Origin: Candidatus Iainarchaeum sp.
GTDB lineage: Archaea > Iainarchaeota > Iainarchaeia > Iainarchaeales > 0-14-0-20-30-16
Assembly (NCBI GenBank): GCA_028710695.1
Contig: JAQTTP010000002.1
Location: forward strand, 60,001 to 92,000
Length of the DNA stretch: 32,000 bases
Direction: 5' to 3'
The position numbers and the translations under genes were made by a program. Within the stretch, counting starts at the first letter, position 1; each line of letters begins with the position of its first letter. Shown piece after piece: positions 790 to 18,913 of the stretch. The notes beneath the pieces were generated by a model, which made no database searches, was not told the DNA's origin, and worked only from the letters and a program-made list of their open reading frames with translations.

Positions 790-5207
<4,418 letters not shown>

Positions 5208-10482: not shown

Positions 10483-10563
10483 CCTTTTCTTTTTTATTAA
10501 ACCATGCAAATAATTAAATACAAAAAGTGCCTATCTATTTATGGATAAAAAATAGTGATATTT

Positions 10564-11664
10564 ATGATGAAAGGACCGTCTAAAGGATTAAGAAGAGCTG
10601 TTGTTGCTGGAGCAGGACTTGCTGCACTTGGACCTGGTTTAGGCCATGCAGAAGCAAAACCCCACCATTTTGAGCCAACAAAACATGAGTTTAGAATGGG
10701 ACACGAGGAAAGAAGAGAGACTGCCAGCGATTTTGCAACTCCAGAAGAAATTGGGAGAGAAAAATTCAGAATTGGTCTAGAACATGCAAAGAAAGCAGGC
10801 CAAGATAAGGTAGAAAAAGGCATTGAAGAGAGAACTTTACACTTATTAAAAAAAGTTGAACGTGGAGAACTAACGCAAAAAGAAGCTCAAGAAATTGCAA
10901 GTAGAATAAATGCAGAATTAAAAGAAATTGACCCTTCAGGACAAACAAGGATTGTATCTGGGCCCGAACTTAAAAAGATGGGTTTAGTTGAAGATGCAGC
11001 ATCAATTCCAATGGGGCTTTGGAGTTTAATAATGGGCGCAGCAAAAAACTTGAACAATCATTATGTCCTAGTTCCACTTACGGAGCTTATTATTCTTTAT
11101 TCATACTTACAAGTTGCAAGAAATGCAAGAAGAAGAGGATTTTTCAAAGGCATTATTGAAAACGACCCAAATAGAGCGCATTTAGGAGACATAAGAGGAT
11201 TATCAAAGATAGAACAATTTGGAGTTCTTCCACTTATGGGCTTATATTTTGCAAACCACTATACAGCAGGAATAATTTTAGGACTAATTGCAAACCCCGC
11301 AATAAGAGCAAAGGTTGCTGGTTTGATTAGAGATTTTAATAACAGGGGCGGCAAAGGCAGAGGAGGATTCAGTTCTCCAGGTACTCCAGATCCGAGAAAC
11401 CCAGATAAAAGAGTTCTTAATACAGGAAGACCAGTTGCGGGATTAAAGGATAACTCCGGAAGAAGCCCAACAAGACGCTCGGCAGCACCAAGAACAGACA
11501 GCAGAGAAGGCTTAGGAGATAAAGCAGCAAGATTCATTTATTCTGGAGACAAAGAAGAGCCAACTGCTGCAGACTTAAGAGACGATTGGCACGACAGAGT
11601 GGCAAATACTATAGATAGAATGACTGGATTTAAACCTGGCAACAAAAGACGTGGAAGAAGTTAA
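10564..11664 (+). CDS. Hypothetical membrane-associated protein with twin-arginine-like signal and Arg/Gly/Pro-rich disordered tail
   Basis: Longest ORF in a 1.1-kb gap. The track start at 10555 is a GTG, so I use the first ATG. KGLRRAVVAGAGLAALGPGLGHA-EA looks like an RR signal peptide. Three hydrophobic segments occur mid-protein. The C-terminal ~100 aa are rich in R/G/P/S. Markedly GC-richer than its neighbours. No family recognised. Confidence 0.6.
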   Translation: MMKGPSKGLRRAVVAGAGLAALGPGLGHAEAKPHHFEPTKHEFRMGHEERRETASDFATPEEIGREKFRIGLEHAKKAGQDKVEKGIEERTLHLLKKVERGELTQKEAQEIASRINAELKEIDPSGQTRIVSGPELKKMGLVEDAASIPMGLWSLIMGAAKNLNNHYVLVPLTELIILYSYLQVARNARRRGFFKGIIENDPNRAHLGDIRGLSKIEQFGVLPLMGLYFANHYTAGIILGLIANPAIRAKVAGLIRDFNNRGGKGRGGFSSPGTPDPRNPDKRVLNTGRPVAGLKDNSGRSPTRRSAAPRTDSREGLGDKAARFIYSGDKEEPTAADLRDDWHDRVANTIDRMTGFKPGNKRRGRS

Positions 11665-12110
11665 TTATTTTCTTTTCGCTCCCAAGGGAATACAATCCAA
11701 CCCTTGTTTTCTTTTATATAAAAATCAGGATATTTTTTACAATGCTCTTTATTAACAAAATAAACTGCTACTTTTACATCTTTTACTTTATATTCACTAA
11801 AAAGCAGATTTTTTATCCATTCAATAGTTACTCCGCTATCAACTAAATCATCAACAAGCAAAACATTCTCGCCTTCCAAATTAATCTGCGGCTTAGAAAT
11901 TATTTGTAAAGTACATCGCTTCTTGTCACAATAAGACTTTGCACAAAACAAGCCAACTTTTTTTATTTTAAGAATTTTACTAAGAAGAGTAGTTGGAATC
12001 AAACCGCCAGAAGCAATTCCAATAATAGCATCACACTTATAATTAGAATTTTTTACTTTCTCTGCCAACTCTTCTGAATATTTTTCTATTTTGTTCCAAG
12101 TAATGTTCAT
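11661..12110 (-). CDS. gpt: Xanthine-guanine phosphoribosyltransferase-like purine PRTase
   Basis: Collinear with E. coli Gpt as I recall it: ITWNKIEKYSEELAEKV, IIGIASGGLIPTTLLSKIL, PRPP loop VLLVDDLVDSGVT, and C-terminal WIVFPWE. Starts 5 nt after the stop of the 432-aa HerA-like gene. Confidence 0.78.
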   Translation of the reverse strand: MNITWNKIEKYSEELAEKVKNSNYKCDAIIGIASGGLIPTTLLSKILKIKKVGLFCAKSYCDKKRCTLQIISKPQINLEGENVLLVDDLVDSGVTIEWIKNLLFSEYKVKDVKVAVYFVNKEHCKKYPDFYIKENKGWIVFPWERKENN

Positions 12111-12115
12111 TAAAA

Positions 12116-13414
12116 TTATTTCTTAAATGCACTTGCGGTTTTACCTGCATCCCAAGTTGTTCTTGGCCTTATCTTTACAAGCCACAATTTCTCAGAATTA
12201 TCGTCCAATATTAATGCATAACCTTTTGCTCTAGGCATTCTTCCAAAATATTTGTCCATATCTTCATACAAATAACTTGGCCTCAAAGCAGCAACAGCAT
12301 CAATATCTGGCTTTGCAGTCATTCTCATACTAATGAAAAGATCACACTGCGAGATTGCATCAGGATGTAATTTCTCAGGCCTCTGTGTAGCCAATAATAG
12401 ACTTAATCCTGGTTGTCTTCCAACTCTTACCCATTCTAATAAAACATCCAATGCCATACTCGGCCTATCCTTAGGCATGAACATGTGGGCTTCATCAATA
12501 AGCATCCAAATCATTGGAAGATCATTTTTCTTTTCGCCCTCGCTAATTAAGGTTATTTCTTCTTTTTTTCTTTCAAGCATTCTTTCTTCATATAATCTTT
12601 TTCCAATTAATGCAACAATGATCTCTCTTATGTTCTCCATTCCCAAAACTTGGCCGTAAGTAGAAACATCAATTATATTTATTGTTCCAGGCTTTGCCAT
12701 CTCTCTAACGCTAGTTCCATTCTTTGAAAATATACCCCAAGATTCTGCAACATCAAATCTATTCTTCAAACTTATCTTTGTATCTTTGTCATAATCTGGC
12801 AACAAATCAATTGTTGATTTTAGTTCTTTAATTCCATAATAAGTTCCAAAAGTATCTTTTGCTTTTTCAACTACGTCCAATAATAGCGCAGATTCTTTGT
12901 CGTTCCAGCCCAACTTAAACATTGAGAACCATTCCATTGGATCTAAGTCTGCAGTTTTTATTGTAAAAGCACCATCTACTGGCATCTTGTTTTTCTGATA
13001 AAATTCTAATTTGCCTTCCGGAACCATAACTCTTAGGTTTTCCATTCCTTCTGGCTCCAAACCCCATTCTCTTATAGAAGATTCTTCTTCTTTATTAGCT
13101 AATTTCATACTCCAAAAGATCCCAACAGTATCAATTACAAAAATAGACATTCTGTTTCTCACATCTACAGGTAGTTTTGTAAACCCTTCCATAAAAACAG
13201 ACATTGTGTAGGACTTTCCTCCACCCCTCTTACCACAAATAAGAACAACGTGCGGAGCAGCAAGGTCAACTAGAACTTTTCTTCCCAAAACTGGGCTTTC
13301 TCCAGAACTCATTACAACCTTTGCAAGGAATCCTGTTCCTTTTGCCCCATATTTTGTTATATCCTTTTCAGGACGGCCAACAATAATATCATCACTAGCA
13401 AGCTCAAATGACAT
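12116..13414 (-). CDS. HerA/FtsK-superfamily P-loop ATPase (DUF87-like), short paralog
   Basis: Walker A LICGKRGGGKSYT, Walker B WMLIDEAHMF, and LLLATQRP. Full-length collinear similarity to residues ~130-560 of the 890-aa protein at 16073-18745. Own TATA-like box (CTTTATATATTA) in the 13415-13511 spacer. Confidence 0.8.
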   Translation of the reverse strand: MSFELASDDIIVGRPEKDITKYGAKGTGFLAKVVMSSGESPVLGRKVLVDLAAPHVVLICGKRGGGKSYTMSVFMEGFTKLPVDVRNRMSIFVIDTVGIFWSMKLANKEEESSIREWGLEPEGMENLRVMVPEGKLEFYQKNKMPVDGAFTIKTADLDPMEWFSMFKLGWNDKESALLLDVVEKAKDTFGTYYGIKELKSTIDLLPDYDKDTKISLKNRFDVAESWGIFSKNGTSVREMAKPGTINIIDVSTYGQVLGMENIREIIVALIGKRLYEERMLERKKEEITLISEGEKKNDLPMIWMLIDEAHMFMPKDRPSMALDVLLEWVRVGRQPGLSLLLATQRPEKLHPDAISQCDLFISMRMTAKPDIDAVAALRPSYLYEDMDKYFGRMPRAKGYALILDDNSEKLWLVKIRPRTTWDAGKTASAFKK

Positions 13415-13486
13415 AAATATCCCTTAATATCACACAAAAGTCTATGTATATAAGTAGAAATAATATATAAAGATTAGGTTATTTGT

Positions 13487-13511
13487 AAAAAAGAAAAAGA
13501 GAAAAAGGGGG
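13487..13511 (-). terminator. Oligo-T tract after the Sm gene
   Basis: After the Sm stop the minus strand reads CCCCCTTTTTCTCTTTTTCTTTTTT. Confidence 0.4.
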
Positions 13512-13736
13512 TTAAGGAGTGATCATTATTAAAGAGTCCCCTCTTAACATTGCTTTTCCGTATTTTACTTTTACGCTGTTGTCTTCTTCTAATGATTCTG
13601 CATCATCTAATACAACATTCATGTGTACATCAAAGGCAACTAATTTACCCCTGATCTTTACATTTCCTTTCATTAAAACTAATACTGGTTTTCCGATCCA
13701 ACTATTCAAGTGGTCGAAAGGTCTATCTTCTGCCAT
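13512..13736 (-). CDS. Archaeal Sm-like (LSm/SmAP) RNA-binding protein
   Basis: 74 aa. Sm1-like KPVLVLMKGNVKIRGKLVAFDVHMNVVLDDAE and Sm2-like MLRGDSLIMI. GGAGGA SD 7 nt upstream. Confidence 0.88.
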   Translation of the reverse strand: MAEDRPFDHLNSWIGKPVLVLMKGNVKIRGKLVAFDVHMNVVLDDAESLEEDNSVKVKYGKAMLRGDSLIMITP

Positions 13737-13751
13737 TTTAATTCCTCCAAA

Positions 13752-13781
13752 CTACCTTCCAAAAAGCCTTTTTAGCCAAGA
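13752..13781 (-). repeat. Orphan duplicate of the minD 3' end (would encode SWLKRLFGR-stop)
   Basis: Ungapped alignment with 13828-13857 matches at 24 of 29 compared positions (hand alignment). Differences are TTA to CTA (synonymous Leu), TCA to GGA (Ser to Gly) and TGA to TAG (stop to stop). A TAA lies 13 codons upstream in that frame and there is no start codon. Confidence 0.7.
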
Positions 13782-13827
13782 AAGCTTTTTGCGTTAAGCA
13801 AAAAGTTTCAGGGTTCTAAAGCTTTTT

Positions 13828-14601
13828 TCACCTTGAAAAAAGCCTTTTTAACCAAGCAAAGAATCCTCCGCCTTGCTTTTTAATATCTATTTCTATACCT
13901 AAGATCTTTCCGGCAACAACATATACTGCCTTTGATGCTTCAGCATCGGGATTACGTAAAATTACCGGCTGTATCTTCTTATAATAGAATGTTTTTCTTA
14001 CCTCTTCATCATATGGCACTACACCATATAGTGGGAGCTCAAGCATACTGATAATATCTCTTTCAGGAATTTCTCCCTTTAATCCAGCATACATATTAAT
14101 TATCAACCCAACTGGCTTTGCATTTATTCTTTGTGCCGCAATTTTTGTTTTCAAAGCATCAGCTATTGATAAAGAATGTGGGTTCACAACCAAAAACACC
14201 TCTGTTGAGGATGCCATTGCTGCCAAGGTATCTTCCCCTATTCCCGCAGGACAATCTAATAATACAAAATCGTATTTTGGTGCTACTTGTTTTATTATTC
14301 CAGGCAATTTAGTTAAATCCAATCTCTGAGTATCTTGCAATCCTAATGACGCAGGCATTATACTTACTTTTTCTGGGCCGTCATAAACAACATCCCAAAC
14401 CCCTGCATCGCCTTTAAGTACATCATTCAAAGTTATTGGGCTTGTTTCCATTCCTAAAATTAAACTTAGGTTAGCCATTGCCAGGTCAGTATCAACCATT
14501 AGCACTTTCTTTCCTTGCCTTGCTAATGCAATACCCAAATTAGCAACTATTGTTGTTTTTCCAACACCACCTTTTCCAGAAGCAAACGCAATAATTCTCA
14601 T
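13828..14601 (-). CDS. minD: MinD/ParA-family ATPase with C-terminal amphipathic membrane-targeting helix
   Basis: Deviant Walker A SGKGGVGKTT, then MVDTDL and FVLLDCPAG. C-terminus is GGGFFAWLKRLFSR. The track start (14613) is a TTG. ATG at 14601 gives the typical MRIIAFASGKGG N-terminus and has GGTGAT 4 nt upstream. Confidence 0.88.
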   Translation of the reverse strand: MRIIAFASGKGGVGKTTIVANLGIALARQGKKVLMVDTDLAMANLSLILGMETSPITLNDVLKGDAGVWDVVYDGPEKVSIMPASLGLQDTQRLDLTKLPGIIKQVAPKYDFVLLDCPAGIGEDTLAAMASSTEVFLVVNPHSLSIADALKTKIAAQRINAKPVGLIINMYAGLKGEIPERDIISMLELPLYGVVPYDEEVRKTFYYKKIQPVILRNPDAEASKAVYVVAGKILGIEIDIKKQGGGFFAWLKRLFSR

Positions 14602-14616
14602 CAATATCACCAAAAA

Positions 14617-15087
14617 TCAAACTTTTACAAAAGACATTATTTTTCTATACTCTTCAAGAAAAATATTCTTTCCATGCACTGCAATATCTTTAGCCACCGC
14701 ATTTAATTCAAATTCGCACAGCCTTGTATCACTTTTTATCATATATACAAATTCATCTTTTTCAAACATGCTTACCCAGCTTCCAACATTAAAATAAAGA
14801 ACTTTATTTTCTCTTTTAAAACTGGAAAACATTTCGTAAAGCTTGTTTGCTAATTCTAATATGTCTGGAGATGAAGAGTAGATCAAACTGTTTTCTTTAA
14901 AAACAACAACGCCCTCTATCAGATGTTTATGCAAAAGACTATCTACAAATTCTCCAAAAGTGTTTTTTAAAATTTCTGGAACTGAGTATTCTTTAGAAAT
15001 ATCTTTGATGTAGCCAATTTGTTCTGCGGGCAATTCTGTGTCATCAATCCCCAGCAGTTTAAATGCTAATTTTGAAAATAGCCCCAT
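14617..15087 (-). CDS. Hypothetical small protein; N-terminal amphipathic peptide plus possible Roadblock/LC7-like fold
   Basis: Its ATG directly abuts the stop of the upstream gene (TAG-ATG). The N-terminus is MGLFSKLAFKLLG. The segment order (FGEFVDSLLHKH / IEGVVVFKEN / SLIYSS / PDILELANKLYEMFSSF / VLYFNVGS / WVSMFEKDEFVYMIKS) fits an alpha-beta-beta-alpha-beta-beta layout. The fold assignment is by eye only. Confidence 0.6.
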   Translation of the reverse strand: MGLFSKLAFKLLGIDDTELPAEQIGYIKDISKEYSVPEILKNTFGEFVDSLLHKHLIEGVVVFKENSLIYSSSPDILELANKLYEMFSSFKRENKVLYFNVGSWVSMFEKDEFVYMIKSDTRLCEFELNAVAKDIAVHGKNIFLEEYRKIMSFVKV

Positions 15088-15576
15088 CTATATCCCTATA
15101 TTTCCCAATCCAATCTCTTTTAGCAGACCGTATTTGTCCTTACCAACCGAAGACTTATCTATATATTTCTCTACTAAAGAAGCTTTATATTCCTTTACGT
15201 AATTATCGAATAATTTCTGATTATTCTGCGATTTGAATAGGATCTTATCATTAAAGGTAACTATTAGCTCCATCTGCTCAGAGGTAAGTTTGAATACATC
15301 AAAACACCCAAATTTTGATGCAAATGAATTAAAAAACAAAGTTGCACTTTCGTCACCATAAACAGATTTATCAAAAGACAAAAAAGAATGCACAGATCCA
15401 ATAACATTTCCAAGTTTAAAGAATATTGCCCCATCTTCAAACCCAAAGCCATTATTATTTGTTACAGAAATATATCCACTAAATTTTTTATTTTCCAAGT
15501 CACTTATTACTTTTCTAACATCGACTTTTGCAACTGAAATATTTTCTGCAACTCTTTCGCCTGTAGGAATATTCAT
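15088..15576 (-). CDS. Hypothetical small protein, DUF4388/DUF2226 (PATAN-like) pattern
   Basis: VDVRKVISDLENKKFSGYISVTNNNGFGFEDGAIFFKLGNVIGSV...YGDESATLFFNSFASKFGCFDVF follows the 'L..l...k.tG.l.v....g.i.f..G.iv.a...G.eA....l....G.F.f' pattern of that family. AGGTG SD upstream. Family assignment by eye. Confidence 0.6.
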   Translation of the reverse strand: MNIPTGERVAENISVAKVDVRKVISDLENKKFSGYISVTNNNGFGFEDGAIFFKLGNVIGSVHSFLSFDKSVYGDESATLFFNSFASKFGCFDVFKLTSEQMELIVTFNDKILFKSQNNQKLFDNYVKEYKASLVEKYIDKSSVGKDKYGLLKEIGLGNIGI

Positions 15577-15590
15577 AAAATCACACCTAA

Positions 15591-16049
15591 CTATCTTCTT
15601 TCTTTATCTAATATAATAACATAATCCGCAGAATTCTTTAATGCTGCACCAGAAGATTCATCAACTAAAATTACAGCAACATCTTTTCCATGCTGTTTTG
15701 CTTTAACAATTACTGGCAAAAAGTCTGAATCTCTTGTTACTAAACAAATCATATCAATATGCTGATTGAAAACTGTTTCAGTTGCTTCAACAGCCATTAT
15801 TACATCAATATCAGAAACACAAACAGAAACTTCAAAGCCCTGATTTATTACTGCTTCAACTAATTTTCCTGGTGCAAATTGGTTCAAATAAACTTTTCCA
15901 ATTTTCATAGTTCCCATTTTATTTATTAGCCCTTTTATTTTTCCTAAATCCAAACTAAATTCTTTTCTCAACATGTTTGGACCATCAATAAAAACAGCAA
16001 TATTTTTTGCGGTTTTTTTCTTCAACCTACTCAAAACACTCTCAAACAT
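15591..16049 (-). CDS. NYN/LabA-like (PIN-fold) domain protein, putative ribonuclease
   Basis: IAVFIDGPNM, then VSDIDVIMAVEA, then LVTRDSDFLPVIVKAKQHGKDVAVI, then ADYVIIL. This is the acidic-residue pattern of LabA-like NYN domains. AAGGTG SD upstream, 23 nt after the 890-aa gene. Confidence 0.8.
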   Translation of the reverse strand: MFESVLSRLKKKTAKNIAVFIDGPNMLRKEFSLDLGKIKGLINKMGTMKIGKVYLNQFAPGKLVEAVINQGFEVSVCVSDIDVIMAVEATETVFNQHIDMICLVTRDSDFLPVIVKAKQHGKDVAVILVDESSGAALKNSADYVIILDKERR

Positions 16050-16072
16050 AGCAACACCTTTTTAATTTAATT

Positions 16073-18745
16073 TTACTCCACTTTATGTCCATAATAACTA
16101 TCAAATAAAGCAACTTGGCTTGAAACTTCATCCTTAAACATATACTCTTTTCTTAACAAAGTATCAATGTTTTCAATCTTTATATTTTTCCAAATTGTTC
16201 CTATTAAAGATCTCAAACTTTCCATACTTATTCTTGGATCCAAAATATGTTCTTGCTCAACTTCATGCTCCATCAAATTAATATCTGACAATGAAGATAA
16301 TAATTTTGTTTTTGGATTCTGCGGAACATCCATTGATTTTATTACGAAATAAACATTTCTTCTTCCCCTTTTTTCTTTTCTTACTAAACCCGCACCAATA
16401 AATCTATCCATCATATTCTTCAATTTGATTTCACCAAAATTGCTTACTTCTCCAAGATATTCTACATCAAAACCCTTATTCTGTGGAAGTTTCAACAACA
16501 ATCTTAAATCATCTGCATCAAATGCTTTAATTTCATTTAAACCTTTTGAATATACAAAAGCATTATCCATATCATGTACAAACTCTATTTTCACAGGATC
16601 AACATAGCACAAGTTTGTAACAAATCCGCCATCATCACTATAAACTTTATAGTCTACTTTTAATATTGGCCTATAAACTGTACTAACAACATAATTATTC
16701 CAAGATAAACTTCTTTTTGCAATCCCATCAATCTGTTCTTTATTGTATTTTTCTTCCATTACTGGATATTTTACTTTTTCTCTATATTCTTCTTGCTCTT
16801 CATCTTTTTCTATGTAAATATATTCATCTTCTAATTGTGCACCTTTGTCAACTAACTTTGCCAAAAATTTATCAAAAGAAATTTCTGCTTTGTATTTCAT
16901 ATTCAAAATTTTCAAAAGAGTTTTTACAGAATGCAAATCTAAAGAGCCATACCTGTCTAACTTACTCAAACCAATTTCGCCCATGATGTCCAATAATTCT
17001 GATTCCTTGTAATGATATTTAACTTCTGCAGTCTGTGTTTCTCTACCCTCGTGCTGTGACATTCTCGGCCTTACTTTCAATACAAACGCCCTAGAAGTTG
17101 TTTCAACTCTATCTGCAACTAATGGAACACCAACCTCTAATCTCTTTATGAAACTTGGCTTTCTGAATTCTGCAGGCACAATTGTTGGAATTCTTCTATA
17201 TACTGCTTTAATATCATCATCAAATACAAGCTTGTATGAAATCAAAGTTCCAACTTGTGACAAAACCCTTGTATCAATTGCTGATGGTTGCTGTGTTGCA
17301 AATATTAAAGAACATCCAGGCCTTCTTCCTTGCTTAACATATTCTATCAATGCTTTTGATGCTGGAGTTTCAAGGGTTCCGGATGGTATTAGTGTGTGCG
17401 CTTCATCAATAAACAACCAAGTTGGAGGAACATCCATTTCTAAATTATCAACTTTGTTATTTTCTTCTTCGCTGAACTTTTTAACTGCTTGATTTCTTGT
17501 TGCAATTTTTCTTGCTGCTAAAATCCTTCTTGCTAAAACACCAACTAAAAGTGCTGAAACTGTTTCATCCAAAAAACTAACATCAATTATTGTTAATTGC
17601 CCTGGAACAGAAATCTCCATTAAAGGAGTACCATTCTTTGCAAATACACCCCAAGATTTTGCTGCTTCAAATCTTGAAACCAATGCTCTCAGAGAATCTC
17701 TTTTATAACCCTTGTCTTTTGAGTTTATTTCTGCGTCATCTCTTAAACAATTTATTATATCATCAATATCAAAATTACTTCCTTTTCCTTTTACAATTAA
17801 ACTATCCATTGTTCTATACCCATCTTTAATTTTTGTTAATGATTTTTCTAACAATAATCCTAATGGACTAAATCTGTCTAATCCAAATGTTAAAGCCCAA
17901 TCTTCTGCAGTCAAGAAAGATGGCTGAATTGTAAAAATTGCATCATATGTTTCTTTTGGAGTTTTTGACTTTGCCCCTTCTGGGATAAATACAAACACAT
18001 TATCTAATCCTTTTGGCTCTAAGCCCCACTCTCTTAGTTGCTTAACTTCACTATCTTGCCTATTTGGGTATTTCATACTCCAAAAAACACCAACAGGATC
18101 TATTACTACCATCCCAACATTCTGGTTCTTCAGGGCCAGCTCTTCTGCTATTACTCCCAAAACATAGGACTTTCCAGATCCCCTTGAACCACATACAAAC
18201 ATTACTTGTGGATCCAAAGAATCAAAGTATACTTCTTTTGCCTCTTCTCCAGTTTCATAAACTTTTCCTAAAAATAATGCCGCTTCTTCCCCGTATTTCT
18301 CAAACACAGACTTCTTTCTTCCAACCATTGCATGGCCAGTCAAAGGGTTTTCTAAAAAAGACAAAGGTATATTTCCTGGAGCATTCAAAAAAGTAGAATT
18401 ATTCTCTATAACATCGCTTTCTTCTGTTTCTATTTCACTAGGCTCGTCTGCAAGCACAATAGGCTCTTCAGGCAATACAACAGTTTCATTGTTCTCTGTA
18501 CCAATCTCTTCTTCTTTTGGGTCTTCAACTTTCACTTTCTTTGCTCTTGTTCTCTTTGGTTTACTTATAGGAGCCAAAGTAGATCCTGTTTCGCCTACAT
18601 TGATTTGGTTTGTCTCATTTTGTTTGCTTTCTGTTTGACTTACTTCTGACTCTTCTTTTTTGTCACCATTGGAGTAAACAACTGTTTTGCCTTCTTCCTT
18701 GTTGTTTGTTCCGTCCATATCATCAAAGAGATCAAATAAGCCCAT
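16073..18745 (-). CDS. Large HerA/FtsK-superfamily ATPase with disordered N-tail and ~330-aa C-terminal extension containing a winged-helix-like segment
   Basis: Residues 1-~130 are low complexity: MGLFDLFDDM, acidic stretches, and the basic patch KPKRTRAKKVKV. Core motifs: Walker A FVCGSRGSGKSY, Walker B WLFIDEAHT, LIFATQQP. C-extension includes LLLKLPQNKGFDVEYLGEVSNFGEIKLKNMMDRFIGAGLVRKEKRGRRNVYFV (wHTH-like). A TTTTATATA box and GGTG lie upstream. Confidence 0.82.
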   Translation of the reverse strand: MGLFDLFDDMDGTNNKEEGKTVVYSNGDKKEESEVSQTESKQNETNQINVGETGSTLAPISKPKRTRAKKVKVEDPKEEEIGTENNETVVLPEEPIVLADEPSEIETEESDVIENNSTFLNAPGNIPLSFLENPLTGHAMVGRKKSVFEKYGEEAALFLGKVYETGEEAKEVYFDSLDPQVMFVCGSRGSGKSYVLGVIAEELALKNQNVGMVVIDPVGVFWSMKYPNRQDSEVKQLREWGLEPKGLDNVFVFIPEGAKSKTPKETYDAIFTIQPSFLTAEDWALTFGLDRFSPLGLLLEKSLTKIKDGYRTMDSLIVKGKGSNFDIDDIINCLRDDAEINSKDKGYKRDSLRALVSRFEAAKSWGVFAKNGTPLMEISVPGQLTIIDVSFLDETVSALLVGVLARRILAARKIATRNQAVKKFSEEENNKVDNLEMDVPPTWLFIDEAHTLIPSGTLETPASKALIEYVKQGRRPGCSLIFATQQPSAIDTRVLSQVGTLISYKLVFDDDIKAVYRRIPTIVPAEFRKPSFIKRLEVGVPLVADRVETTSRAFVLKVRPRMSQHEGRETQTAEVKYHYKESELLDIMGEIGLSKLDRYGSLDLHSVKTLLKILNMKYKAEISFDKFLAKLVDKGAQLEDEYIYIEKDEEQEEYREKVKYPVMEEKYNKEQIDGIAKRSLSWNNYVVSTVYRPILKVDYKVYSDDGGFVTNLCYVDPVKIEFVHDMDNAFVYSKGLNEIKAFDADDLRLLLKLPQNKGFDVEYLGEVSNFGEIKLKNMMDRFIGAGLVRKEKRGRRNVYFVIKSMDVPQNPKTKLLSSLSDINLMEHEVEQEHILDPRISMESLRSLIGTIWKNIKIENIDTLLRKEYMFKDEVSSQVALFDSYYGHKVE

Positions 18746-18913
18746 ATCTACACACCGATGTTTAATTATACGTTATATAAAAGGAAAAAAGATATATAAA
18801 TATAGCTAGCCTTTTACAAAAGGCACAGTCTGCCAAAAGTGGGCCCATCTTCGCCTTATGGCTCGATAGCCCTTATCATTGAAATTTATTGCAAAAATCT
18901 AGAAAAAGACAAA

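Follow-up and report, generated by a model that had tools for sequence, protein, structure and literature searches.

Do seven adjacent genes on one strand of a compact archaeal genome, two of them encoding HerA/FtsK-type ATPases and one encoding MinD, make up a single machine? The genes lie in a 32,000-nucleotide stretch of contig JAQTTP010000002.1 from Candidatus Iainarchaeum sp. (assembly GCA_028710695.1, positions 60,001 to 92,000), which we call the window; the coordinates below count from its first letter. The initial annotation of this locus took the genes as one system in which the two ATPases act with MinD, adaptor-like small proteins and a nuclease, and proposed for it either (a) chromosome segregation or division-coupled positioning or (b) nucleic-acid defense. 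Our comparisons of gene order across related genomes give a different answer: the seven-gene cluster is a lineage-specific juxtaposition and not one conserved machine, and the conserved unit inside it is a DPANN housekeeping operon with the order NYN-DUF2226-Roadblock-like-MinD-Sm. We lean slightly toward the view that this operon encodes a module for positioning by MinD, in which the DUF2226 and the Roadblock-like proteins are small partners dedicated to MinD. All seven open reading frames of the cluster were re-read from the window and are present, in the following order of transcription (aa, amino acids):

16073-18745, minus strand: ATPase890 (890 aa), HerA/FtsK superfamily; DUF87 match
15591-16049, minus strand: NYN (152 aa), PIN-like nuclease of family TIGR00288; TIGR00288 and NYN matches
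15088-15576, minus strand: DUF2226 protein (162 aa); PF09987 match
14617-15087, minus strand: Roadblock-like protein (156 aa); predicted fold
13828-14613, minus strand: MinD (261 aa), archaeal type; TIGR01969 match, likelier start at ATG 14601
13512-13736, minus strand: Sm/LSm (74 aa), RNA-binding; LSM match
12116-13414, minus strand: ATPase432 (432 aa), compact paralog of the ATPase core; DUF87 match

Profile searches bear out most of the family assignments. Both ATPases exceed the cutoff of 23.2 bits for DUF87 (PF01935, the HerA central domain), ATPase890 with 55.5 bits and ATPase432 with 31.7 bits, as expected of HerA/FtsK-superfamily ATPases. The collinear paralogy that the initial annotation had described is seen in their pairwise alignment, which pairs ATPase432 residues 11-425 with ATPase890 residues 140-568 (32% identity, 452 aligned columns, E 2e-63). 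The 152-aa protein, read earlier as an NYN/PIN-fold protein, scores 191.4 bits against the archaeal model TIGR00288 (cutoff 178.45) and 82.6 bits against NYN; the 261-aa protein scores 269.3 bits against the archaeal MinD model TIGR01969 (cutoff 201.75); and the 74-aa Sm protein matches LSM with 68.4 bits. The acidic motifs FxDGPN, SDxDV and TRDSDF of the NYN protein are kept in all orthologs (DGPN, SDxDV and TRDSDF are invariant in 11), and this first gene of the conserved block encodes a predicted nuclease. NurA, Mre11 and Rad50 had been reported missing near the ATPases, and Pfam searches find none of them among the window proteins.

Does ATPase890 travel with the genes beside it? Its orthologs occupy 271 sites in species-representative genomes, mostly of Iainarchaeia/Diapherotrites. 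The orthologs in the loci that we collected (L001-L081, n = 81) are 39-91% identical to ATPase890, and a neighborhood census was made over 80 species-level loci with a flank of at most 10 kb each. In 78 of these 80, no gene for NYN, DUF2226, the Roadblock-like protein, MinD, Sm or ATPase432 lies within 10 kb. ATPase890 stands beside the NYN and MinD genes only in L002 and L003, the closest relatives (91% and 81% identity), and the ortholog in a complete Iainarchaeum genome (locus L001) has none of the block genes beside it. Ten recurrent neighbor clusters were inspected in the 80 loci; they include housekeeping genes for GlmS, GlmM, the ribosomal protein L44e and a CofD-like protein. ATPase890 is a core Iainarchaeia gene; with ATPase432 it forms a compact subfamily of its own within the HerA/FtsK superfamily. 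Comparative gene order suggests that it moved 5' of the MinD operon only in the close relatives of the window. In the locus L110, a tRNA-binding gene is followed by aIF5A (on the other strand), by TatD and then by NYN and the rest of the block. The window reads a homologous tRNA-binding gene, ATPase890 and NYN, which is consistent with a local rearrangement that inserted ATPase890.

Two features of the ATPase890 surroundings may be recorded here. GlmS, GlmM and L44e also recur downstream of its orthologs. In about 20 of the 81 loci, a protein of about 990 aa is encoded on the same strand about 3.8 kb downstream of the ortholog (L001:20040-23057 and about 19 loci among L002-L081); the L001 member belongs to the SMC family.

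What remains once ATPase890 is set aside? The order NYN-DUF2226-Roadblock-like (about 155-170 aa)-MinD-Sm, with small gaps or overlaps between genes, is found in about ten divergent lineages, among them Micrarchaeota, which have only DUF2226-MinD-Sm. One of them, clade A, comprises the close relatives of the window and has ATPase890 upstream. Another, clade B, is known from metagenomes; its proteins are about 60% (MinD), 62% (NYN), 40% (DUF2226) and 30% (the homolog of the 156-aa protein) identical to those of the window. No ATPase890 gene lies upstream of the clade B block within 4.7-9.4 kb, and the NYN gene is preceded there by unrelated divergent genes. Much more distant lineages were reached through the exhaustive profile search for DUF2226; among these the block is present in L098, L099, L100-102, L108 and the Diapherotrites locus L110. 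Orthologs of the 156-aa protein sit at this place in the block in clades A and B as well as in L098, L099, L100, L108 and L110. Sm follows MinD in all eight lineages with downstream sequence visible, and NYN precedes DUF2226 in every block-bearing lineage but Micrarchaeota L109. The flanks vary, with aIF5A (opposite strand), TatD, a membrane protein or an M50/CBS protease upstream and a 467-aa protein of unknown function, a metallo-beta-lactamase-fold protein or CTP synthase downstream. No description of a linkage between NYN and MinD was found in the literature searched. The single system of two HerA-type ATPases, MinD, adaptors and nuclease does not survive this comparison: ATPase890 is unlinked in 78 of the 80 loci, and the block recurs without it in many lineages. 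The arrangement of ATPase, nuclease and MinD is unfit as the basis for a system definition.

The aIF5A gene stands divergently 5' of the block in five lineages (L098, L100, L107, L108 and L110), and in two of these five a TatD-family gene lies between aIF5A and NYN.

Is the second ATPase part of the block? ATPase432 adjoins it in L003, L087, L082, L083, L090 and L091, all of them in the two related clades A and B. We considered its adjacency as a general feature and rejected it, as ATPase432 is not adjacent to the block in L100, L107, L109 or L110. The gene after Sm encodes an unrelated 467-aa protein in L100, a metallo-beta-lactamase-fold protein in L107, an uncharacterized 170-aa protein with no family on record in L109 and, on the opposite strand, CTP synthase in L110.

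Are the seven genes transcribed together in this genome? The genes from ATPase890 to MinD had been described as spaced by 0-23 nucleotides (nt) and preceded by GGTG boxes, and both features are seen in the sequence. The gap is 23 nt between ATPase890 and NYN, 14 nt between NYN and the 162-aa gene, and 0 nt between the 162-aa and 156-aa genes, where TAG abuts ATG. From the 156-aa gene to MinD it is 3 nt if MinD begins at TTG and 15 nt if it begins at the ATG at 14601; this ATG, 8 nt behind a GGTG box, is the more probable start. Longer gaps separate MinD from Sm (91 nt) and Sm from ATPase432 (97 nt). A GGTG box stands before each of the genes for ATPase890, NYN, the 162-aa protein and MinD, and GGAGG stands before Sm. 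Elsewhere in the window, 6 of the 15 other same-strand junctions are at most 11 nt; short gaps are frequent in this compact genome, so the spacing is compatible with an operon yet unexceptional. Co-transcription of the five-gene run stays likely on spacing and shared strand, and the first six genes, ATPase890 through Sm, probably form one transcript here. The following elements were read from the sequence around its ends:

18753-18804, minus strand: promoter-like region 5' of the ATPase890 gene, inferred from sequence only
18792-18804, 18774-18783 and 18761-18770, minus strand: TATA-like A/T-rich boxes in this region
18753-18756, minus strand: GGTG box before ATPase890
13486-13511, minus strand: C5-T5 followed by an oligo-T run, right after the Sm stop, resembling an archaeal terminator
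13444-13472, minus strand: TATA-like boxes 5' of the ATPase432 gene

The terminator-like run suggests that the transcript ends after Sm, and the same T-rich run together with the TATA-like boxes suggests that ATPase432 is a separate transcription unit. The spacer between MinD and Sm holds a further feature, an 87% identical copy (13754-13783) of the last 30 nt of minD (13830-13859). The copied segment comprises the codons of the C-terminal tail and the stop and lies amid AAAGCTTTTT palindromic repeats; it looks like the relic of a small tandem duplication.

What might the two small proteins between NYN and MinD be? The 162-aa protein had been labeled DUF4388/DUF2226-like. The second half of this label stands: the protein scores 24.3 bits against DUF2226 (PF09987; cutoff 22), covering profile positions 1-109 of 252, and all 47 sampled members of its family match the profile, with a best E of 6e-17. 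The first half does not, as DUF4388 (PF14332, PATAN) reaches 15.6 bits, below its cutoff of 25, and matches only weakly in 4 of the 47 members (best E 0.0033). A distant relationship of the N-terminal domain to PATAN/DUF4388 is possible. The protein consists of an alpha/beta N-terminal domain (residues 1-110), a linker and a conserved C-terminal peptide ending in ...KYGLLKEIGLGNIGI; its predicted structure (predicted local distance difference test, pLDDT, 80) finds no fold match for the N-terminal domain in the Protein Data Bank (PDB). Word-index searches return only seven close relatives of this protein and two of the 156-aa protein, and an exhaustive profile search yields 218 representatives of the DUF2226 family. 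A motif of two hydrophobic residues, two residues that are each Lys or Arg, a further hydrophobic residue, Gly and Leu, at about 150-156, is present in 82 of 139 family representatives. It forms the extreme C-terminus in short forms and stands ahead of a disordered linker in long forms. DUF2226 was not mentioned in the literature searched, and the block gives this family its first functional context.

The long forms of DUF2226 (236-328 aa: P0195, P0196, P0205, P0208, P0213, P0222 and P0225, and those of L099, L107 and L108) have a disordered linker rich in Pro, Glu and Lys after the conserved motif. In P0205, P0208, P0213, P0222 and P0225 a short terminal helix follows, for example AEKLKKLLLKEK; it may act as a second element for binding or for the membrane. 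Fusion to a Roadblock-like domain was ruled out for the long forms of 252-328 aa, in which the extra sequence is the linker and the short C-terminal helix. Homology between the 162-aa and 156-aa proteins was also rejected (hhalign probability 0.3% and 0.9%). In Theionarchaea, a 416-aa protein (P0244, L106:6001-7251) carries three tandem DUF2226 domains and is unlinked to NYN, MinD and Sm.

The 156-aa protein begins with a peptide of the pattern M-x-x-F-x-K-Φ-A-x-x-Φ-L-G-Φ-D-x-T (Φ, hydrophobic), which is its best-conserved part, and continues with a predicted Roadblock/LC7-like domain at about residues 36-153. Its AlphaFold model, made from a 3-sequence alignment, has a pLDDT of 62.7 and the order alpha-beta-beta-alpha-beta-beta-beta-alpha. 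When this model is compared with the PDB by Foldseek, the top 50 matches are all of Roadblock/LC7 type (E 4.6e-4 to 8e-3), and they include LAMTOR, MglB (6izw_C, 6hjm), a Thorarchaeota Roadblock protein, dynein LC7 and the C-terminal domains of Gtr proteins. At the level of sequence the assignment failed: with E values up to 5 allowed, Robl_LC7 matches neither the 156-aa protein nor the nine proteins, eight of which are homologs, that occupy its place in other loci, and a profile search against PDB sequences finds no Roadblock match, nor is any sequence family matched. The earlier reading of this protein as Roadblock-like thus holds for the predicted fold and not for a sequence family.

MinD itself carries the deviant Walker A motif SGKGGVGKTT (residues 12-21), invariant in orthologs, and a C-terminal tail, GFFAWLKRLFSR (GFFxWLKxLF), that is kept in orthologs. 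Bacterial MinD models align up to residue 258-259 of 261, while the archaeal model leaves the tail unaligned. Neither MinC nor MinE has a Pfam match among the window proteins. Archaea lack both, and the partners of archaeal MinD are not established (PMC13228585, PMC11588486); in Haloferax, none of four MinD proteins acts in division, and they position the motility and chemotaxis machinery instead (PMC13228585, PMC11588486). ATPases of the ParA/MinD type are activated by short terminal peptides of their partners, in which hydrophobic residues surround a single Arg or Lys (PMC12462528), and cyanobacterial PATAN domains bind a motor ATPase (bioRxiv 10.1101/2021.06.11.447907).

We propose that the two small proteins would act as activator and adaptor of MinD, because ParA/MinD partners act by terminal peptides (PMC12462528) and archaeal MinD has no MinC or MinE. 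In such a module, ATP-bound MinD would dimerize, and its C-terminal tail would anchor the dimer on the membrane. To contact the MinD dimer, the DUF2226 protein would use the conserved hydrophobic-basic peptide at its C-terminus, and the Roadblock-like protein, which presumably forms dimers as other Roadblock proteins do, would use its conserved N-terminal peptide. One of the two partners might stimulate ATP hydrolysis, like MinE or the N-terminal peptide of ParB, and the other might link MinD to a cargo. The outcome would be positioning of the Min/ParA type, with the divisome, the nucleoid or RNA machinery encoded at the ends of the operon as candidate cargoes. The DUF2226 and Roadblock-like proteins are thus concrete, testable candidates for regulators of archaeal MinD.

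Several observations weigh against this MinD module. It is drawn from gene order and motifs, and the census behind it covers about ten lineages. All lineages with the block are DPANN, so that shared ancestry adds to the synteny. Nor is the block uniform: in L107 a 252-aa DUF2226 protein is followed directly by MinD and Sm, and the Roadblock-like gene is missing; Micrarchaeota L109 has only DUF2226-MinD-Sm, missing both the Roadblock-like gene and NYN; and in L103-105 the block is interrupted after DUF2226 by an unrelated protein. The Roadblock label derives from a model with a pLDDT of 62.7, with modest E-values and no match at the sequence level. The hydrophobic moment of the terminal helices, the MinD tail included, shows no significance against shuffled sequences. 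Finally, the module does not account for the constant Sm and the usual NYN, and an RNA cargo has to be considered as an alternative.

How does the block compare with known positioning systems? Like MinCDE, it has a MinD with a deviant Walker A and a tail aligned by bacterial MinD models, and small genes in the same operon; one of the small proteins, composed of an N-terminal peptide and a presumably dimeric alpha/beta domain, loosely recalls MinE. Unlike MinCDE, the block has no MinC or MinE homolog in the window, its partners are DUF2226/PATAN-like and Roadblock-like, the small genes lie 5' of minD, and NYN and Sm are included. Because MinC and MinE are missing from the window, the block is outside the MinCDE set; by analogy it would be functionally closest to Min or ParA-adaptor systems. 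ParABS and its relatives share activation by a short unstructured terminal peptide, which the C-terminal motif of DUF2226 fits (PMC12462528). On the other side, neither ParB nor a centromere is evident, MinD is not an ATPase of ParA type, and the DUF2226 peptide is C-terminal whereas that of ParABS is N-terminal. The DUF2226 motif may resemble the ParB 'GLGxGL' peptide.

The MglA/MglB system with PATAN regulators offers another parallel, since a Roadblock/LC7 fold and a PATAN-like domain both bind or regulate NTPases elsewhere (bioRxiv 10.1101/2021.06.11.447907); however, the block encodes no small GTPase, its NTPase is MinD, its Roadblock likeness is at the level of fold, and its PATAN match is below threshold. 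For the Dip proteins (DipA, a GTPase; DipB, DUF2073; DipC, a Zn-ribbon protein), a role in divisome positioning has been proposed in archaea that use FtsZ, some DPANN among them (PMC13228585); within DPANN, they are reported only from Nanohalarchaeota (PMC13228585). Dip resembles the block in being a three-protein operon in which a membrane-binding NTPase is joined by a small partner acting on it (PMC13228585), but the families of DipA, DipB and DipC have no Pfam match in the cluster.

Where do the two ATPases stand among their known relatives? They share the Walker A/B core (DUF87) with HerA-NurA and FtsK systems, and the winged helix of ATPase890 orthologs recalls the FtsK gamma domain. In ATPase890, an acidic, low-complexity N-terminus (about 1-125) precedes the ATPase core (about 140-568); in the C-terminal region, residues 740-803 align to a TrmB-type winged helix of the orthologs. 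The orthologs score above cutoff for the TrmB/HTH_27 winged helix; in the window protein itself the termini have no domain match, and the winged-helix models do not score. Unlike FtsK, ATPase890 has no hydrophobic segments in its N-terminus, so no FtsK-type membrane anchor is evident. In ATPase432, only about 55 residues precede Walker A, which leaves little room for the HAS-barrel of HerA. Against the HerA DNA-repair equivalogs NF040819/NF040937, the two ATPases score 42.7 and 37.3 bits where 970 is the cutoff and 29.6 and 30.7 bits where it is 800, and these models align to the C-terminal half of the ATPase only. FtsK/SpoIIIE (PF01580) gives 14.1 and 21.2 bits (cutoff 24), and the anti-phage HerA models NF042943/4 give at most 49 bits (cutoffs 800-850). 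The PADLOC HerA models, with lengths of 379-686, are matched over only about 125-160 positions, all in their C-terminal half. By the scores tested, the ATPases are not members of HerA-NurA, FtsK or anti-phage HerA. As no DNA translocase is recognized in the group, ATPase890 may reasonably be considered a candidate for an FtsK-like function there.

Some relatives of both ATPase paralogs carry in-frame insertions of intein size (about 350-420 aa) at the Walker A/P-loop (L003:9998-13981, L003:17578-20007, L091:9212-11815 and L082:7610-8650). The orthologs P0003, P0013 and P0034 have Pfam intein or LAGLIDADG domains, and the two ATPase copies of the window are intein-free.

A distant relative of ATPase432 was found on a plasmid of Haloplanus sp. 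HW8-1 (NZ_CP098519.1, 6980-8149; L111). It is a 389-aa 'ATP-binding protein', 31% identical to ATPase432 over about 90% of its length (E 8e-67). Its gene extends over the end of a hypothetical gene of 380 aa and is flanked on one side by a BREX-like ATP-binding protein and on the other by an AddAB-like pair of PD-(D/E)XK nuclease and helicase. This locus is the sole hint of a defense or mobile-element context, and it belongs to a different lineage.

What else could explain the cluster? Both HerA/FtsK-type ATPases might couple DNA translocation to MinD positioning in an integrated segregation or division machine. The 23-nt gap and shared orientation, which hint at co-transcription of ATPase890 with the block here, would fit such a machine, as would the FtsK gamma-like C-terminal winged helix of ATPase890 orthologs, the SMC gene a few kb from these orthologs in about 20 loci, and the adjacency of ATPase432 in two clades. 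We nevertheless consider it unlikely: ATPase890 is unlinked in 78 of the 80 loci and absent upstream of the block in clade B and all other lineages, unrelated genes replace ATPase432 in L100, L107, L109 and L110, and in the window ATPase432 lies behind the terminator-like run with TATA-like boxes of its own. Of hypothesis (a), only the MinD core remains plausible. A housekeeping super-operon, in which even the core genes are linked by co-expression or inheritance with no physical interplay, is a similarly unlikely account. The neighborhood is wholly housekeeping, Iainarchaeia keep the synteny of unrelated genes (GlmS, GlmM, L44e and SMC near ATPase890), short gaps are common in the genome, and both NYN of family TIGR00288 and Sm are general archaeal genes, all of which would be expected of it. 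Against this, the inner order and its tight or overlapping junctions persist across Iainarchaeia and Micrarchaeota while the flanks shift, and the two small proteins, for which no independent role is known, bear conserved terminal peptides typical of partner-binding motifs.

The genes at the operon ends raise the alternative of an RNA-centered module, in which the MinD triad would localize or regulate RNA processing by NYN and Sm, for instance RNA decay at the membrane. The invariable Sm after MinD (in each of the 8 lineages where the sequence beyond MinD is visible), the NYN gene before DUF2226 in all block lineages except L109, the retained acidic catalytic motifs of NYN, the divergent aIF5A upstream in five lineages and the HxHxDH motif in the metallo-beta-lactamase-fold protein after Sm in L107 would all agree with it. 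No ParA/MinD system that positions RNases or Sm proteins is known, however, NYN is missing in L109, and the link is drawn from gene order; we regard this module as distinctly unlikely. We think the same of its more specific form, a self-organizing positioning triad with MinE- or ParB-like activators and with NYN and Sm as its cargo at the membrane; if it were true, MinD would drive an organizer of RNA processing at the membrane and not of DNA or the divisome. Far less probable still is hypothesis (b), an anti-phage module of HerA and a nuclease effector. It can call on PADLOC models of HerA (E 4e-20) and mad8, which are matched in part, on a weak NYN match, on the closest solved relatives by sequence, which are anti-phage HerA proteins aligned over partial regions, and on the BREX-like protein and AddAB-like pair beside the plasmid ATPase of Haloplanus (31% identical). 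Yet the anti-phage HerA models score at most 49 bits against cutoffs of 800-850 and align to no more than the C-terminal half, with the ATPase. With 271 sites, ATPase890 belongs to the core genes and stands in conserved housekeeping synteny, and its adjacency to NYN is limited to one shallow clade. Both ATPases bear P-loop inteins in relatives, and inteins favor conserved sites of essential proteins. No relatives of ATPase432 were found in the phage collection. With a core ATPase, a housekeeping context and PADLOC and NCBIfam HerA matches that are partial and far below cutoff, the defense proposal is not supported. The MinD positioning module with its two small partners is the explanation that we prefer for the conserved block.

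The window is core genome and also encodes gyrB, gyrA, four aminoacyl-tRNA synthetases, an H+-pyrophosphatase and a CofD-like protein; a scan of the window finds no tRNA genes or Rfam matches. The gyrB and gyrA genes (790-5207), which overlap by 4 nt, encode a bacterial-type DNA gyrase in a DPANN archaeon. A phosphoribosyltransferase gene of xanthine/hypoxanthine type (11661-12110) lies 5 nt 3' of the ATPase432 gene, a pairing not found in L003, the closest long relative. Convergent with it, and overlapping its end by 4 nt, is an open reading frame of 369 aa on the plus strand (10555-11664), which has no Pfam match and whose C-terminal third is rich in Gly, Arg and Pro.

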